From Trueperaceae bacterium (GTDB taxonomy: Bacteria > Deinococcota > Deinococci > Deinococcales > Trueperaceae): 64,000 nt of DNA. Each line of letters begins with the position of its first letter. Position 1 is the stretch's first letter. The notes under the pieces are model-generated. The model saw only the letters and a program-made list of their open reading frames with translations, did not search any database and was not told the origin of the DNA. Position numbers and translations under genes: made by a program. Location: assembly GCA_965215565.1 (NCBI GenBank), contig CBDCDZ010000004.1, positions 3,552,001 through 3,616,000 of the forward strand, in the 5' to 3' direction. Positions 3,832 to 64,000 of the stretch are shown here, one piece after another.

Positions 3832-4259
3832 TATAGCGGTTATCAGAAGTAAAGCAGTGCACAGAAGTACTGAATTGGAATAGCGCAAGTCTCAGCCTGC
3901 TAAGGCTAGCGGGATTTCATTCTCAAATGTGCGTGCTGCTTTCTGAAAGCCCGTAGGGACGAAGTTTTCGCAAAGCGAATGACGTAGTTTGCCGTTAGGC
4001 AACGGTGTTCTACATCGTGAGAGCGTTGCTCCGCTTACGAAGTTTCCCTTTCGCAGATGCGAAAACGGTGTAACCGGGAAAAACTTATGTACACTCAAAC
4101 CAAATGATACTTGCTATATTGGACCGAAATAGCGCAGATTTCACAGCTTTGCTGTAACGGAACTTCATCCGACAATGTGCGTGCTAGTTGTCGTTCTATC
4201 ATGTGAGACTGGCTCAAACCAGATGAAGTCGCGTGGGCGCTCCCGCTGGACCTGCTATA
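3832..4259 (+). mobile_element. MITE-like element, outer copy, containing a nested second copy
   Basis: Left end TATAGCGGTTATCAGAAG and right end ACCTGCTATA match the 115-bp copy at 43045-43159. It is interrupted at its internal TA by the inner copy. Confidence 0.85.
3850..4118 (+). mobile_element. MITE-like element, inner nested copy with several micro-insertions
   Basis: TAAAGCAGTGCACAGAAGTA...AATGTGCGTGCTG...CTCAAACCAAATGATACTTGCTATA, bounded by a duplicated TA of the outer copy. Confidence 0.8.
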
Positions 4260-17737: not shown

Positions 17738-17971
17738 GTTGTCCAGATCGTTCGCGGCGGCGGTGCCTCCTAAGTTGGATATAAGCCCAGTATAACCTAA
17801 AAATCTTCAGGTGAATATCAGGGGGAGGTGAGGAATACATGAAGAGGTCGTCAGGGTGACGGTCTTCGGTACAGGTTTGAACAGGAGCTTCCACGCTTGC
17901 ACATTAAGCTCGAGGCTTGATTTCAGTAACTGAGCGCAGTCTCGAGCACTTGAAACGTGAGACCGCTAAGA

Positions 17972-18173
17972 TATAGCAGGTATCATCTGGTCAGCTTGGG
18001 CGAAGCCATTCCCGGAGGGAAACTTCGTAAGCGAAGCAACGCTCTCACTAAAAAGAACATCGCCTAGCACGCACGTTCGGGGATGAAATCCCGCTATTGC
18101 TGCGCAATGAGATTTGCGGAGAAGCGTTGCTCCGCATAACTACGTTCAAGCAATGATAAGTGGAACTGCTAAT
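17972..18173 (-). mobile_element. MITE-like element with four micro-insertions (202 bp)
   Basis: TATAGCAGGTATCATCTGG...CTCTCAC...TAGCACGCAC...GGAACTGCTAAT. 115-bp core plus inserts of about 21, 21, 24 and 21 nt. Confidence 0.8.
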
Positions 18174-18223
18174 AGTCGTGCCGGTCAAAGCGTTACCTCT
18201 AGCTCGCGGCACCCTCCAATAGA

Positions 18224-18338
18224 TGTAGCACTTCCAAGATATACTGAGACGGAGTGACGCAGATATCATCTCCTAATGTGCGTGATAGACGGCGCTTTTC
18301 AAAGTGAGAGTGTCTCTGACCAGATGATACCTGCTAAT
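18224..18338 (+). mobile_element. MITE-like element, insertion-free 115-bp copy
   Basis: TGTAGCACTTCCAAGA...GCAGATATCATC...AATGTGCGTG...GTGAGAG...CCAGATGATACCTGCTAAT. Confidence 0.8.
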
Positions 18339-38553: not shown

Positions 38554-41068
38554 CAATGACGAGACCTCGAGCCCTCTCCTGCAACTTGTGAAGCAAAGTC
38601 AAAGCGTCTAAGGGCGATAAGCGGCTTAAATCCTGCTCTAAAAGTTCCTCGACAACCTCTTGAGAGGTGTTGCCTCGGCTGGACTCGAGCCCCGCCAACA
38701 CCGCGTGCGCCCGCTCCAAGACCTTGGCAGGAACCCCGGCGAGCTTCGCGACTTCCAAGCCGTACGCCTTACTCGCTGGACCCGGTAAAACTTGGTGATA
38801 AAAGGTGAGCGCCCCCGCCTCTTCTTTGGCGGCGACGTGCTGATTGCGTGCGGCGGGCAGTTTATTCGCGAGCCCGGTGAGTTCAAAATAGTGCGTTGCA
38901 AAAAGGATGTACGACTCGGTGCGCTCATGCAGATATTCCGACGCCGCCCACGCGAGCGCAAGACCATCGAAGGTGCTCGTCCCGCGTCCGATTTCGTCTA
39001 ACAGAATGAGACTTTTGGGCGTCGCATTCTGCAAAATACACGCGAGTTCGTCCATCTCCACCATGAAGGTGCTGCGCCCGCCCGCGATGTCATCGGACGC
39101 GCCGATGCGCGTGTAGATGCGCTCGAAGAGGGGGAGCACGGCGCGTTCCGCCGGGACGAAAGAGCCGATTTGAGCGAGTAGGACGATGAGGGCGTTCTGG
39201 CGAAGATAGGTGGATTTGCCGCTCATGTTGGGACCCGTCAAGATGACGAGGCGGGCTTGCGGTGAGAGGTCTAAGTCGTTGGCGATGAAGGGGTGAAACT
39301 GCTCGACGACGGGATGCCGCCCGCCTTCGATGTGAAAGCTCGAGTCCGAAAATTCAGGGCGGCAAAACTGACCCTGCGCCGCCGCCTCTGCGAGCGAGCT
39401 ATACACGTCGAGTTCGGCCAGCACTGCACCCAACTCTCGCACCGCTTCACTGTGTGGGAGGAGGCTGCTGCGCAGTTCGTCAAAAACCAAGTATTCGCGC
39501 CTTTTAGCGCTGTCCTCGGCGCGGAGAATCTCACGCTCTTTCTCGCGCAAGTCGCTCCGGGTGTAGCGCTGGCGGTCTTTTAAGGTTTGCACGGCGCGGT
39601 AGCTCTCGGGGACTTGCTCGACGTAGGGGCGCGTGACCTCGAGATAATATCCAAACACCCCGTTGAAGCCCACCTTGAGCGTCGGTATCTTCGTCCGCGC
39701 ACGCTCCTGCGCCTCTAACTCGGCAATCCACGCCCGCCCCGCTTCCGCTTGACCTCTCAGCGCGTCGAGTTCGCTGTCGAAACCACTTTGGATGAGTCCG
39801 CCTTCGGTGATTTTGAGGGGTGGATCGTCTACCAATGCCGCGTCAATTTGCGCTTGAACGTCGTTCAGTTCGCCCATGCGTTCTTTTAAGGCTTGTAGTG
39901 CCTCTTCAGAACGCCCCGAGAGGTGCTTGTGAAGTTCGGGAACGAGACTGAGACTTCTCGCCAAGGCGCAGAGGTCTCTGGCACTGGCGCGACTTGCGGC
40001 GAGCCTCGAGGCCAACCGCTCCAAATCGTGCATCTTGTAGAGGCTTTTGCGAATCTCACGGCGCAGCACAGCATCTTTGACCAGGGCTCCAACGGCGTCT
40101 AGGCGGTGCTCGAGCAATTCCTTATCCAAGAGCGGATGCCGTAACCATGCCCGCAAGAGCCGCCGCCCCGGAGCGGTGCGCGTCTTGTCCAAAATACTGA
40201 GTAGGGTGCGCTCCTCTTGCGCTTCGCTGAAGGTTCCAAAGACCTCCAACGTCGCGAGCGCCACCTCGCCGATCTGCATGTACGCGCTCGGGTCATAGCG
40301 CACAAACCGCGCGACTTGCGGTAAGCAGCCCTGCTGCGTCGTGAGCGCGTAGGAAAGTACCGCGCCCGCCGCCCGGATGAGGGCGTCGCTGTCCGTTCCT
40401 GTCGGCAGAGCGCTGAACTGCTCCTCTAACGACCGCTCCGCCTCCTCTAAGTCGAAACGCCCCCTCGTCACCATCACCGAGAAGCGTTCGCTAAAGGTCT
40501 CACGAAAGTCAACTTGCGCGTAGAGTTCAGGCGCGAGCAAAACCTCGGCGGGGCGGTAGCGCCTGAGTTCATCGAAAAGGCTGCTCTTCGCGTAGACCTG
40601 CGTACCGCGAAACTCGCCCGTCGTGATATCTAAAAGTGCCAAACCGTAGCCTTCGCCTGTGGCAACAGCGGCGAGATAATTCGCATCAGGACGCAGCAGC
40701 TTTTCGTCCGTCACCGTGCCCGGCGTGATGAGTTGCGTGATGTCGCGCTTGACGAGCCCGTCGGCGGTAGCAGGGTTCTCGACTTGGTCGGCGACGGCGA
40801 CGCAGATGCGCTGATTCAAGAGCCGCTCGATGTACGTGTCCGCGCTTCGCAGCGGGATTCCTGCCATCGGCGTGGTGAAATCTTTGCTCGTTTTATGCGT
40901 CAGGGTGATGCCGATGGCGCGGGCTAAGCGCTCCGCGTCTTCGCCGAACGTCTCGTAAAAGTCGCCGACTTGAAAGAGGACGAGATAATCCGGGTAGCGT
41001 TCGCGCAGTTCGACGTATTGCGTTAGGAGCGGGGGGAGCGGACCTTTGCCCTCACCTTTTAGGGTCAT
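38546..41068 (-). CDS. mutS: DNA mismatch repair protein MutS
   Basis: GDFYETF, PMAGIP, TGPNMSGKSTYLRQ, STFMVEM, DEIGRGT and FATHY. TATCAT lies 6 nt upstream of ATG 41068. Confidence 0.97.
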   Translation of the reverse strand: MTLKGEGKGPLPPLLTQYVELRERYPDYLVLFQVGDFYETFGEDAERLARAIGITLTHKTSKDFTTPMAGIPLRSADTYIERLLNQRICVAVADQVENPATADGLVKRDITQLITPGTVTDEKLLRPDANYLAAVATGEGYGLALLDITTGEFRGTQVYAKSSLFDELRRYRPAEVLLAPELYAQVDFRETFSERFSVMVTRGRFDLEEAERSLEEQFSALPTGTDSDALIRAAGAVLSYALTTQQGCLPQVARFVRYDPSAYMQIGEVALATLEVFGTFSEAQEERTLLSILDKTRTAPGRRLLRAWLRHPLLDKELLEHRLDAVGALVKDAVLRREIRKSLYKMHDLERLASRLAASRASARDLCALARSLSLVPELHKHLSGRSEEALQALKERMGELNDVQAQIDAALVDDPPLKITEGGLIQSGFDSELDALRGQAEAGRAWIAELEAQERARTKIPTLKVGFNGVFGYYLEVTRPYVEQVPESYRAVQTLKDRQRYTRSDLREKEREILRAEDSAKRREYLVFDELRSSLLPHSEAVRELGAVLAELDVYSSLAEAAAQGQFCRPEFSDSSFHIEGGRHPVVEQFHPFIANDLDLSPQARLVILTGPNMSGKSTYLRQNALIVLLAQIGSFVPAERAVLPLFERIYTRIGASDDIAGGRSTFMVEMDELACILQNATPKSLILLDEIGRGTSTFDGLALAWAASEYLHERTESYILFATHYFELTGLANKLPAARNQHVAAKEEAGALTFYHQVLPGPASKAYGLEVAKLAGVPAKVLERAHAVLAGLESSRGNTSQEVVEELLEQDLSRLSPLDALTLLHKLQERARGLVIDE

Positions 41069-41368: not shown

Positions 41369-41598
41369 TATAGCAGGTTACTTCGTATAGCTTCGCTCAA
41401 TCATCTGGTCAGAGTGTACGAAGTTTTGCGAAGCAACACTCGCACTTTGTAAAACGATGTTTCCTGCGGAAAACTGCGTAACTAGCACGCACTTCAAGGG
41501 ATGAAATCCCGCAACGGCAGGGCGGCCTGCCCGTAACGCTAGTCCTTGCGGACAGAGATCTGCGCTCAACTGTCTCAATATGTTGTGGAACTGCTATT
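41369..41598 (-). mobile_element. MITE-like element with multiple micro-insertions (230 bp)
   Basis: TATAGCAGGT...ATCATCTGG...TAGCACGCAC...GGAACTGCTATT; shares inserts with 53531-53762. Confidence 0.8.
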
Positions 41599-43044: not shown

Positions 43045-43159
43045 TATAGCGGTTATCAGAAGTATTGGGCTGAAATAGCGCAGGTATCATCCGACAATGT
43101 GCGTGCTAGTCGTTGTTCTATCACGTGAGGCTGGCTCAAACCAGATGATACCTGCTATA
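43045..43159 (+). mobile_element. MITE-like element, insertion-free 115-bp reference copy
   Basis: TATAGCGGTTATCA...TGATACCTGCTATA; 12/14 terminal inverted repeat including the flanking TA. Confidence 0.85.
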
Positions 43160-49140: not shown

Positions 49141-49283
49141 AATAGCAGGCATCGTCTGATTTGAAGCACTCTCACGGCATGAAACATTGTTTAGCACGCA
49201 TGTTCGGGGATGAGGTTCCGTTCTCAAGCTCTGCGAGCTGAAATCTGCGCTCATCTATCTCAGTATCTCGCGGAACCACTTTA
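49141..49283 (-). mobile_element. MITE-like element, diverged, with one 28-nt insertion
   Basis: AATAGCAGGCATCGTCTG...CTCTCAC...TAGCACGCA...ATCTGCGCTCATC...GGAACCACTTTA. Confidence 0.7.
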
Positions 49284-53530: not shown

Positions 53531-53762
53531 ACTAGCAGTTCCAAGACATACTGAGACGGATGAGCGCAGATCTCTGTCCGTAAGGACTAGCGTTACGGGC
53601 AGGCCGCCCTGCCGTTGCGGGATTTCATCTCCGAATGTGCGTGCTAGTTACGCAGTTTTCCGCAGGAAACACCGCTTTGCATAGTGAGAGTGTTGCTTCG
53701 CATCGCTTCGCGCACTCAAACCAGCTCCGAGCTTTGCGAGACAGACTTTGATACCTGCTACA
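53531..53762 (+). mobile_element. MITE-like element with multiple micro-insertions (232 bp)
   Basis: ACTAGCAGTTCCAAGA...AATGTGCGTGCTAG...CTCAAACCAG...TGATACCTGCTACA. Confidence 0.8.
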
Positions 53763-59878: not shown

Positions 59879-59993
59879 TAAAGCGGTTATCATAAACATT
59901 GAGTTGAAATGGCGCAGATATCATCCCCTAAAGTGCGTGCTAAACAATGTTCTCTTTAGTGAGATTGGCTCAAACCAGATGCTACCTGCTACA
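59879..59993 (+). mobile_element. MITE-like element, insertion-free 115-bp copy
   Basis: TAAAGCGGTTATCA...GCGCAGATATCATCC...GTGCGTGCTA...CTCAAACCAGATGCTACCTGCTACA. Confidence 0.8.
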
Positions 59994-61771: not shown

Positions 61772-61855
61772 ATTCAGAAGCTGACAAAAGCGCATCCGAG
61801 AAGAGGTGCGCTTTTTTTGCACAACCTCTCATCTCTTTTTGAGATACAATGTGAT

Positions 61856-62143
61856 GTGCATGTCCTCAGCAAAAGAGCGCTTGTCGCTTTTTGGAAGAAA
61901 CATCCTAAGAGCGAAGCTCCGCTCGAGCGGTGGTACAAAGTTGTTAGCAAAACTGACTTCAAGACGTTCAGCGAGTTGCGCAAAGCATTTCCTAGCGTAG
62001 ATAAAGTAGGGGATTTGTTCGTCTTCAACATCGGCGGCAACAACTATCGGCTCATCGCGGCGATACATTTTGACCGAGGCAAACTTTTCATTCGTCACGT
62101 TTTGACGCACAGAGAGTACGATGAAGAAAGGTGGAAGACATGA
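61856..62143 (+). CDS. higB: Type II toxin HigB family
   Basis: (M)HVLSKR, FPSVDKVG, VFNIGGNNYRLI and LTHREYD. TACAAT lies 5 nt upstream of GTG 61856. Confidence 0.9.
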   Translation: MHVLSKRALVAFWKKHPKSEAPLERWYKVVSKTDFKTFSELRKAFPSVDKVGDLFVFNIGGNNYRLIAAIHFDRGKLFIRHVLTHREYDEERWKT

Positions 62144-62532
62144 GTATTGCAGAGCTAGAAACGCACTGGTCAGCCGTTCGACCTCTTCTCTCGGTTCACA
62201 CCGAAGAAGACTACGATAGAGCAGTTGTCTATCTCAATGAGCTTATTGATGAAGTCGGCATGGATGAGACTCACCCTCTTTACGACCTTTTAGACACACT
62301 TGGCACGGTTTTACACAGCTACGAAGAGGTGCACTACAAAATCCCTGATGTTTCTGGACGAGAGATGCTCCGGTATTTTATGGAAGAGCACGACCTTACT
62401 CAGTCCGATTTGCCTGAAGTCGGTTCTCAAGGCGTGGTATCTGAGCTATTAAGCGGCAAACGTGAACTCAATGCGCGGCACATGCGGGTGTTGGCTGAGC
62501 GGTTTGGTGTGTCGCCAGCGGTGTTTCTCTAA
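62140..62532 (+). CDS. higA: HigA antitoxin (HTH)
   Basis: LTQSDLPEVGSQGVVSELLSGKRELN...RFGVSP; ATGA overlap with higB. Confidence 0.9.
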   Translation: MSIAELETHWSAVRPLLSVHTEEDYDRAVVYLNELIDEVGMDETHPLYDLLDTLGTVLHSYEEVHYKIPDVSGREMLRYFMEEHDLTQSDLPEVGSQGVVSELLSGKRELNARHMRVLAERFGVSPAVFL

Positions 62533-62672: not shown

Positions 62673-63089
62673 GTGAGCACACCGTCACTCCTCCAACCAC
62701 GACAGGTTAAACAACTCGCTTCGCCTCATTCTGCTAAGCCTCCGCACCTGTATCACTTAGCACAGAGAGCCGAGAGGTTAGCCGTGCTCGTTGAAGAGGA
62801 TTGGGATTCGCTTTCGGATGAGATGAAGCATCTGCTGACATGTCTTGCTTATGATTCGCTCGAGCAGCCTCGCTTCTCGCTCAAGCACCTCTTCTTACGT
62901 CTGCGCTGGTCTTGGATGGTTGCGTTCGATGATGAAGAAGCATTGTTACAATACCGCGCGTCCTTCATGAGGTTGAGGAATGCCGTACTGGACACCATTG
63001 AAAGCGAGAATGAGGACTACCAGGCTGACTTAGCGGAAGCGTTGTCGTCTTTGAGCTTTGATCCTAACGCTGGTAGAAGAGTTAGATAG
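62673..63089 (+). CDS. Hypothetical helical protein (possible antitoxin)
   Basis: AAGGAGGT SD before GTG; acidic C-terminus; convergent on a RelE-like ORF. Confidence 0.6.
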   Translation: MSTPSLLQPRQVKQLASPHSAKPPHLYHLAQRAERLAVLVEEDWDSLSDEMKHLLTCLAYDSLEQPRFSLKHLFLRLRWSWMVAFDDEEALLQYRASFMRLRNAVLDTIESENEDYQADLAEALSSLSFDPNAGRRVR

Positions 63090-63092
63090 TCG

Positions 63093-63524
63093 TTAGGTGA
63101 TAGAGCGTATTATCCGAGCAATTTCTGCGTCACTAGGTCTTTTTGGATACTCTGCATGAGTGTAAATCCAAAACGGCTGAACGACTTTGTGAGTTTCGCT
63201 GATAAGATACATAATTCTGCCAAGTCGAGCTGGTTTCTCTAATTCAGGAACCTGAAAGTAGAATTTCCAAAATTCCCAGTCAGTCTGCTGGATATTTGCG
63301 GGTAAAGGTTCGGGTTCTAACCTTTGGATGTCTCTGATGACTTCGCGTGCTCGAGGTGGATTTTCTTTGGGAGCATAGGCTAGGACGGTGTAAATGTTTT
63401 CCAACAGCTCATCAAATTTCTCTTTACCTTTAGCATTTTTTCTATAGTGAGTTTTGACGAGCCTCTCATACGTTCTGTCAAAGTGTGGTTGTATGTTGAC
63501 GCGGTAAGGAGGGTCACTGCTCAC
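63093..63524 (-). CDS. Hypothetical protein, RelE/HigB-like pattern
   Basis: YRV...FDRTYERL, FWK, GRIMYLI and IYTH..Y.KRP layout resembles RelE-superfamily RNases. GAGGT SD upstream. Confidence 0.5.
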   Translation of the reverse strand: MSSDPPYRVNIQPHFDRTYERLVKTHYRKNAKGKEKFDELLENIYTVLAYAPKENPPRAREVIRDIQRLEPEPLPANIQQTDWEFWKFYFQVPELEKPARLGRIMYLISETHKVVQPFWIYTHAEYPKRPSDAEIARIIRSIT

Positions 63525-63567
63525 AACTATTTACCTCAAGGGAAAGAAAGGCGCTAAAATACCCGCC

Positions 63568-64000
63568 TTAGCAAAATTTACACTTGCCTAATTGGAGGTC
63601 ATCCGCAAGCCAACTATGAGTGGCAGTAGCTACCTCATTTGGGTTGGCTATATCAACTTCTTTGTATAGCCGCCCAACGAAATCAGTTGGGAGTTGCTCA
63701 ATCGTCTTGTCTTTCAAAAGAGCGCACCTACGACCCGTCATAAGCATTGCCCCAACTTCTATGATGAGGTTGTGATTGAGTCCTCTTTCTACGGTATCTT
63801 CGAAAATACCGATTCCATACTGGCAAGCCCATATGTGAGCAGCAACGTTGCCGTGTAAGTCGTCGTCAATCTGGCGGTCTGACGCCATGTGAAATACAAG
63901 ACCGTGTTGATCTACAACCTCTCGTATGGTGTCAACCGCGCCACGAACGGGGTCATTTGTTTTTGAAGGATATCGCGTCATACAAAAGACGTTATGCTCA
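63568..64000 (-). CDS. TIR-like / nucleoside-deoxyribosyltransferase-like domain protein (5' end outside window)
   Basis: Frame is open to the window edge (EHNVFCMT...). NHNLIIEVG and LPTDFVG motifs. AT-rich relative to the backbone. Confidence 0.6.
   Translation of the reverse strand, partial: EHNVFCMTRYPSKTNDPVRGAVDTIREVVDQHGLVFHMASDRQIDDDLHGNVAAHIWACQYGIGIFEDTVERGLNHNLIIEVGAMLMTGRRCALLKDKTIEQLPTDFVGRLYKEVDIANPNEVATATHSWLADDLQLGKCKFC

Follow-up and report, generated by a model that had tools for sequence, protein, structure and literature searches.

Hairpin units of about 20 nucleotides occupy fixed sites in a transposon-like repeat of a Trueperaceae bacterium

Introduction

How DNA elements of only about 20 bases move is a question that has stood since 2008. 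Small dispersed repeats (SDRs) are 21–27 nt long, dispersed and multicopy, and their secondary structure is kept despite sequence change. A repeat copy in the genome of a Trueperaceae bacterium (Deinococcota) raises the same question in a phylum beyond the cyanobacteria. The copy lies in a 64,000-nt stretch of DNA that was analyzed as a whole (hereafter, the window; G000:C4:3552001-3616000) and is lengthened by several tiny hairpins. The original prediction, made from the window alone, held that hairpin micro-inserts enter fixed sites of such repeats, that they form a system analogous to cyanobacterial SDRs, and that a RAYT transposase encoded in the window might mobilize them. What are these inserts, how do they enter and spread, and what moves them? 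We address these questions in the 4.49-Mb source genome (G000) and in 60 relatives, among them those labeled G001, G002, G005, G020, G030, G034, and G035. A literature search, with most subscription papers outside its reach, found no such units described for Trueperaceae or Deinococcota.

Results

The host repeat

A profile search of G000 recovered 503 loci of a 111-bp host repeat, every one chromosomal and 381 of them full length; three small contigs of the assembly gave zero counts for all three motifs tested. Target duplications and short terminal inverted repeats, the latter of only about 6 bp, are MITE features of the host. Copies of the main subfamily carry a 3-bp target duplication of varied sequence in 177/264 cases, and TA duplication is restricted to two minor subfamilies (54/61 and 30/35), a difference within one repeat family that hints at two transposases. 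Neither the end pairs facing inward nor those multicopy transposases that were checked in G000 yielded an autonomous partner with host ends. Covariation analysis of the host brings out only its long internal hairpin and the subfamily markers.

The same repeat, with inserts, occurs in public Trueperaceae records, three of which supply 19 of 36 loci. Host length is fixed at 111 bp across distant lineages although internal sequence varies; one lineage shows tandem gains of about 11 bp, and a metagenomic lineage separate from G000 carries its own hairpin inserts of +8 and +26. Contigs of four sequencing runs match the flanks, and the joints that they contain within the repeat stem from other copies, so that locus-level polymorphism is unreadable from these runs.

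Discrete inserts at fixed sites

Insertion statistics were drawn from the 361 full-length copies that scored at least 60 with no more than six gap columns (20 were dropped). These comprise 146 empty and 215 filled copies and hold 449 insertions: 33 of 1–4 nt, 16 of 5–16 nt, 8 of 17–19 nt, 266 of 20–25 nt, 3 of 26–37 nt, 72 of 38–53 nt, and 51 of at least 54 nt, with peaks at 20–25 nt and multiples thereof. Four zones of the core hold 389 of the 400 insertions that reach 17 nt. Both the discrete lengths and the fixed sites that had been predicted are thus borne out across the 361 copies, and a continuous length distribution, named beforehand as the contrary outcome, was looked for and is absent. 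Across all 503 loci, deletions longer than 5 nt make up only 7 of 106.

We recognize at least five families, whose single units measure 17–27 nt and contain mini-hairpins with GNA loops. Families B, C, and E are built as double mini-hairpins. Family C (21 nt) consists of a 3-nt leader, a 2-bp GNA hairpin, a 2-nt linker, and a 3-bp GNA hairpin (3+7+2+9); family B (19–27 nt) begins with TT, followed by a 2-bp stem with a GNA loop and a longer hairpin; and family E (17–19 nt) lies nested in the head of B. Families A (net 20–25 nt) and D (net 23–24 nt) are built as a hairpin with a 3′ tail, and G, H, and F are rarer insert types. Family A occupies core column 40 (118 copies) and, inverted, a mirror motif near column 100 (17); B occupies columns 63 (97 copies) and 35 (33), C columns 88 (81), 103 (12), and 32 (8), and D column 98 (22). 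The three main sites harbor 51, 51, and 38 distinct inserts. Long inserts are nests, in which B sits in C, B in B (often in the GNA loop), E in B, A in inverted A, or F in A. The inserts themselves are not MITEs, having neither terminal inverted repeats nor target duplications.

The copy that raised the question (17974–18171, minus strand) is bounded by a 3-bp target duplication (17971–17973 and 18172–18174). It had been given as 202 bp; the composition of core plus 87 bp of inserts holds, and the repeat itself measures 198 bp, the larger figure counting 2 bp extra on each side. Its proposed make-up of 21+21+24+21 proved correct. A 21-nt double mini-hairpin of family C is joined 5′ of a target A (18128–18148, minus), and a 25-nt family A unit, a hairpin with its 3′ tail, replaces the target A at core column 40 for a net gain of 24 (18087–18111, minus). 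A second 21-nt C unit in opposite orientation (17997–18038, plus) is split by a 21-nt B unit nested within it (18010–18030, minus). The window also contains an empty 111-bp copy with a 3-bp duplication (18226–18336, plus) and two empty copies of a TA-flanked subfamily (43047–43157 and 59881–59991, both plus).

Other window copies contain the interrupted inserts that had been noted at the outset, and the nests at 23629–23693 and 53572–53624 are real. In the first, three A units are nested in each other (innermost 23650–23672; host copy 23558–23731, minus); this copy had been listed as 178 bp with inserts of 3×21, and the inserts are actually 22+21+21, with a 1-nt deletion elsewhere. The second is an A+F composite (F at 53593–53619) in a host copy at 53533–53760 (plus) that also holds B (53648–53668), C (53694–53714, minus), and D (53725–53748). 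A similar set occupies the copy at 41371–41596 (minus), with an A+F composite (41505–41557), B (41461–41481), and two C units (41415–41435, plus; 41379–41399). The host copy at 3852–4116 (plus) contains A (3891–3916), E within B plus a further B, and a C holding a B that holds another B; a partial host copy with its own A unit (4140–4164) follows directly. The 28-nt insert reported for a 143-bp copy is present (host 49143–49281, minus; insert 49214–49242), and it looks like a 24-nt A unit with a 4-nt remnant of a nested copy that was probably lost.

Among its other features, the window carries a 16S rRNA gene (31126–32634, minus), with no other Rfam match in the window, including 23S or 5S. 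HigB-HigA and ParE-type toxin-antitoxin genes lie at 61817–62532 and 26841–27152, and RelE-like and hypothetical genes at 62673–63981.

Junctions and the target adenine

Comparison of filled copies with their nearest empty twins reveals clean junctions and no target duplication. A target adenine either lies immediately 3′ of the joined unit or is replaced by it; family F is an exception, being followed by G and having a 3-nt repeat at both ends. Family A replaces the column-40 adenine in 29/29 twin comparisons and family D the column-99 adenine in 8/8, and empty copies keep the adenine at both places (177/191 and 302/303, respectively). B at column 63 and C at column 88 show a single unambiguous split without microhomology in 25/45 and 41/49 cases; for family A there are 5–7 equivalent junction positions, that is, microhomology.

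Families B and C need a target A. At the B site, A is found in only 167/256 empty hosts; filled hosts are invariant there, and no host without this A is filled. The base that follows B on the GNA strand is A in 150/162 junctions and G in the other 12, and B at column 35 is associated with an A-to-G change in 4/8. The target reads G at G000:C4:124318, 104863, 2649316, and 4084645, which are independent contexts whose empty alleles have A.

Fold of the units

Double mini-hairpins number 127 in 452 inserts, compared with 0–2 in five shuffles. When the outer pairs were left unconstrained, the outer pair of the mini-stem in 87 C-like matches was G-C in 43, A-T in 43, and G-T in 1, and the main middle pair was paired in 84. 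B-like heads with an unconstrained stem fall most commonly into the classes AC..GT (101), AG..CT (12), and AT..AT (10) among the 145 shown. In a selection of 19 C-type and Nostoc sequences, pairing extends to 96.8% of cells, a value that relatedness inflates and that 0/500 shuffles match. Secondary structure is thus kept through sequence change, including compensatory base pairs, which is also a feature of SDRs. Unconstrained main triloops are GNA in 48/72 cases for A and 41/91 for B; some A loops are GNRA (23/145 detector hits), with triloops and GNYA loops predominating. One loop census of C and of the B mini-loop demanded GNA by construction, and we left it out of the evidence.

The folded species is probably DNA. 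According to a review, GNA alone among all triloops gives very stable, exonuclease-resistant DNA mini-hairpins, the RNA versions are much weaker, and standard nearest-neighbor parameters fail to predict mini-hairpins (PMC13037366). By nearest-neighbor folding, six single units were no better than shuffles. With DNA parameters, the GNA strand is preferred by B (42/48), C (20/23), and E (10/13), and there is no such energy preference in A (25/56) or D (7/23).

Spread among host copies

Twenty-five hosts share the 52-nt A+F insert almost unchanged (median 0, maximum 2 differences), and the hosts themselves differ at a median of 20 of 111 positions. Insert presence is scattered almost randomly over the host tree (94, 74, and 67 parsimony changes at the three main sites vs 100, 87, and 74 after shuffling), a poorly resolved tree built from 85 columns, and every pair of the three sites shows all four combinations of filled and empty. 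Spread is lateral, and the inserts are younger than the divergence of their hosts. The phylogeny set beforehand against the prediction, in which short copies arise by deletion from one long ancestor, was not found. None of 80 metagenomic outgroup host ends has an insert of family A, B, or C, and many of these ends measure 111 bp.

Units are transferred with little or no flanking sequence. Positions −2 and +6 are diverse among host copies (0.51 and 0.64, respectively), yet at each of them A-filled copies mismatch their own empty twin in only 2/48 cases. A minority differ from the twin right beside the site (B, 11/40 at offset −2 and 7/40 at −1; A, 7/48 at −3). Because A-filled copies keep their own polymorphic flanks, long gene-conversion tracts are unlikely, and because empty copies retain the adenine, plain deletion cannot produce the empty state. 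Column 40 reads C in 8/191 empty copies, a change that the mirror site shows in 1/303, and these eight look like rare losses.

No strand bias was detected relative to GC skew, dnaA-based replichores, local skew, or transcription of neighboring genes, in a test that is blunt because the skew of G000:C4 is weak and mismatches dnaA (minimum at 3.15 Mb, distant from dnaA at 2.67 Mb). Family E is split 13 vs 33 between strands (p=0.005, uncorrected and for non-independent copies).

Insertions outside the host repeat

The prediction had also been set against the outcome that inserts never occur in other contexts, and here too the units turned up elsewhere. Family B is found in other micro-elements, in an IS1-like remnant, in TGTC-type palindromes, and in tandem arrays of heptamers, and several of these contexts, including the arrays and the palindromes, have empty alleles elsewhere in G000. 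Moreover, B interrupts two single-copy genes. A 24-nt in-frame B gives a hicA-like gene eight extra codons, where the G002 orthologue (94% identical) is empty, and a 23-nt B frameshifts an HbpS-like gene, again with an empty counterpart in G002. Family F was found upstream of an IS256-like gene. With its many TGTC-type palindromes and tandem heptamer arrays, the contig G000:C4 resembles filamentous cyanobacteria in its repeat content.

Range among relatives

The host repeat is present in G001, G002, G005, and G020 among the 60 relatives examined. B heads number 104 in G000, 51 in G001, and 69 in G002 (controls 0–1) and no more than 11 in other genomes; A tails number 25 in G001 and 26 in G002 and are absent from G005, G020, and G035. 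Across the 61 genomes, the families are confined to one genus. A broad double-hairpin pattern exceeds its control in G030 (10 vs 2), G034 (7 vs 0), and G035 (26 vs 0); the G030 and G034 matches that were read lie in TGTC-type palindromes and are not counted as units. C-like double hairpins also occur inside CGTC/TGTC-type palindromes of Vulcanimicrobiota and Acidobacteriaceae records.

Candidate mobilizers and alternative explanations

No mobilizer was found among the candidate families searched, and no intermediate was seen. The window's RAYT (TnpA-REP; 38032–38556, minus), which lies between mutS and mutL and overlaps both, had been put forward as one candidate. It contains a GTAG palindrome of its own within the reading frame (38246–38273), a property described for RAYT subclass 2.4 (PMC6006769), and the corresponding double-foot palindrome has 13 perfect sites genome-wide. 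No unit was detected at the RAYT, the in-gene palindrome being of a different family. G000 and G001 have the gene, whereas the search of the sister genome G002, where B heads and A tails abound, turned up no homologue. Unit junctions lie 5′ of A, not after CT, and the candidacy is not supported. A second Y1 (RAYT-like) domain, likewise with palindromes in frame, is part of a 1319-aa restriction-modification protein (G000:C4:3784707-3788666, minus), whose palindrome family has 132 two-strand matches in G000. Among other families considered, GIY-YIG occurs in 60/61 genomes and the small one in G000 has no adjoining unit, GxxExxY and DUF559 have no match in G000, and a four-helix-bundle gene exists in one copy with no unit seen.

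A Y1 HUH enzyme of some kind, be it the RAYT, the restriction-modification domain, or an IS200-type TnpA since lost, could nonetheless peel and paste the hairpins, and the chemistry would fit, in that HUH enzymes use folded single strands and leave no duplication (PMC8266576). The main hairpin of family B is directly preceded on its 5′ side by a GNAG tetramer, which is part of a covarying mini-hairpin and which A and D lack, and the RAYT is shared by two unit-bearing genomes. We nevertheless consider this improbable: both Y1 proteins come with their own palindromes, and REP sequences are known to be cleaved at CT or CA. Neither protein nor family searches recovered a Y1 homologue from G002, the family search being of limited sensitivity in that it misses the window RAYT too. 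G005 and G020 possess both the host and an IS200-type TnpA, yet their A tails and B heads are not above control. To our knowledge, HUH joining does not drop a target base. Two further enzymes seem very improbable. Movement through RNA, with a group II intron lending its reverse transcriptase, could appeal to four such loci in G001 and to the GNRA loops of some A units, but RVT_1 has no match in G000 (99.99% complete) or G002, other loop types predominate, and there is no bias toward the transcribed strand. An IS110 element, above the NCBIfam cut-off, lies at G000:C4:3105978-3107103 and eight other sites (seven full copies), and its bridge recombinase might also place family A: the left ends lie in the host terminal motif, which A also uses, in 9/9 cases, with the same 2-nt core, the left end has guide-like matches to the host target and to its own end, on the bridge RNA model of PMC11208160, and the element is present in G000–G002 and absent from G005. 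Against this, IS110 uses the terminal motif only, whereas the internal motif is the preferred site of A (118 vs 17); the donor guide matches the IS end and not A, B and C have no 2-nt core, and the element is common in genomes without units. IS110 itself forms a third layer of parasitism on the host repeat.

Explanations without a dedicated mobilizer must also be weighed. A replication or repair polymerase that stalls or meets a gap at an adenine might switch briefly to a folded donor strand, copy the unit, and return with one base lost or miscopied. That no candidate transposase tracks the units, that one target base is lost in A and D or changed from A to G in the 12 B junctions whose empty alleles bear A, and that family A shows microhomology all speak for this account; we still regard it as unlikely, since the B and C junctions are mostly single splits without microhomology, B ends are exact in unrelated single-copy genes, and such polymerases are general while the families are restricted to one genus. 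Deinococcota recombine readily, and ectopic gene conversion could have spread a few founder insertions over the host copies, about 500 in number, with mobility proper being rare. A single repeat family does hold most copies, at the same sites; up to 5 nt from the site, two hosts that share an insert resemble each other somewhat more closely; and the minority of twin differences right beside it are what short co-conversion predicts. Hypervariable columns 6–9 nt away differ as in controls, however, and filled copies match their own twin, which limits tracts to a few bases; the diversity of inserts at the main sites and the many unrelated B contexts add to the difficulty. The single-copy gene insertions refute conversion as the sole cause, and it is also improbable as the main one, while it may still add to the spread. 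To the idea that short copies are deletions from one long ancestor we give almost no weight: the apparent losses at column 40 indicate that excision occurs rarely, but the adenine cannot be restored by it, alternative inserts share one site, and the inserts are younger than hosts whose outgroup copies measure 111 bp.

Discussion

We favor the reading, at a probability of roughly 50%, that the units are non-coding DNAs, likely copied as folded single strands and joined at a nick 5′ of an adenine or in its place by an enzyme that is probably not the window RAYT. A folded single-stranded unit would be copied and joined beside the target adenine, and the donor copy would stay in place, such that unit numbers rise. 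One mechanism may serve all the families and the 21-nt Nostoc elements as well, and filled hosts would have multiplied further through the host's own transposition.

The units work like SDRs, in a new phylum, as had been proposed; discrete lengths, scattered lateral presence, and other contexts support such a layer in this genome. The SDRs of Nostocaceae, as papers citing Elhai et al. (2008) describe them, are alike in size, precise insertion, nesting, and having no known enzyme. Here, single units span 17–27 nt with a peak at 20–25 nt, and precise insertion is proven by empty and filled sites. Provisionally, given the partial sources, the Trueperaceae units differ from those of Nostoc in phylum, in stems, in having a transposon-like repeat as their main reservoir, in the replacement of the target base by families A and D, and in the requirement of B for almost nothing beyond a purine. 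They are not members of SDR5, which inserts in HIP1 between bases 3 and 4 (PMC4390886); that site places SDR5 5′ of an A, a position that the units share, whereas their targets are not HIP1. A 2018 paper reports no SDR in HIP1-rich cyanobacteria outside Nostocaceae (PMC5861425).

The closest likeness was found on the N. punctiforme plasmid NC_010631, where 21-nt elements that split HIP1, and that are probably SDR5, share the family C layout of T-start, 3-nt leader, 2-bp GNA hairpin, 2-nt linker, and 3-bp GNA hairpin. Among 34 listed HIP1 matches split by 20–22 nt, this layout occurs at six places and is degenerate at two of these. A search with the family C pattern returns five elements on the plasmid and none in the control; the first 50 kb of the plasmid contain none. 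Spacing and loops are identical and stems differ, and 21 nt cannot separate descent from convergence. A nested stretch of units had no blastn match in the plasmid collection. We tentatively raise the possibility, which we hold to be doubtful, that the 21-nt double GNA mini-hairpin is a minimal mobile DNA common to both phyla, handled by one conserved single-strand joining activity in Nostoc and Trueperaceae. If this is true, nuclease-resistant oligonucleotides would be pasted at adenines by a chemistry outside the DDE, HUH, serine, tyrosine, and bridge recombinases.

Other known systems resemble the units in part. REP/REPIN sequences with their RAYTs are likewise short intergenic hairpins that leave no duplication, nest, and occasionally enter genes in frame; the units differ in having no fixed GTAG foot, in not clustering around tnpA, and in joining 5′ of A, and the true REP families of G000 are separate. 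CGTC/TGTC-tagged palindromes, as Di Nocera (2013) describes them, share paired GNA motifs, and B inserts into them in G000, but they are tagged long stem-loops in which that source does not demonstrate the paired motif as a separate insert. Repeat-targeting IS110 elements (IS621; Durrant 2024) also enter repeats site-specifically without true duplication, and differ in being 1.1-kb elements with a recombinase, a bridge RNA, and a 2-nt core. Fungal mitochondria, too, have tiny hairpin units, namely double-hairpin elements and GC clusters, that are thought to be mobile without an enzyme of their own. These fungal elements are organellar, longer, and GC-rich.

For the standing question of how such small elements move, G000 supplies hundreds of empty and filled pairs in a phylum beyond the cyanobacteria, together with rules that can be tested: the GNA mini-hairpin strand and its fold, a site 5′ of or in place of A, the absence of duplication, and transfer of the unit only. 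Nostoc punctiforme, which can be cultured and has elements of matching layout, could serve as a bench system, and an enzyme that moves the units would give a new means of making small scarless insertions. In the Trueperaceae bacterium itself, the units alter genes, adding eight residues to a HicA-like protein and shifting the frame of an HbpS-like one, and are thus a mutagen of their own.
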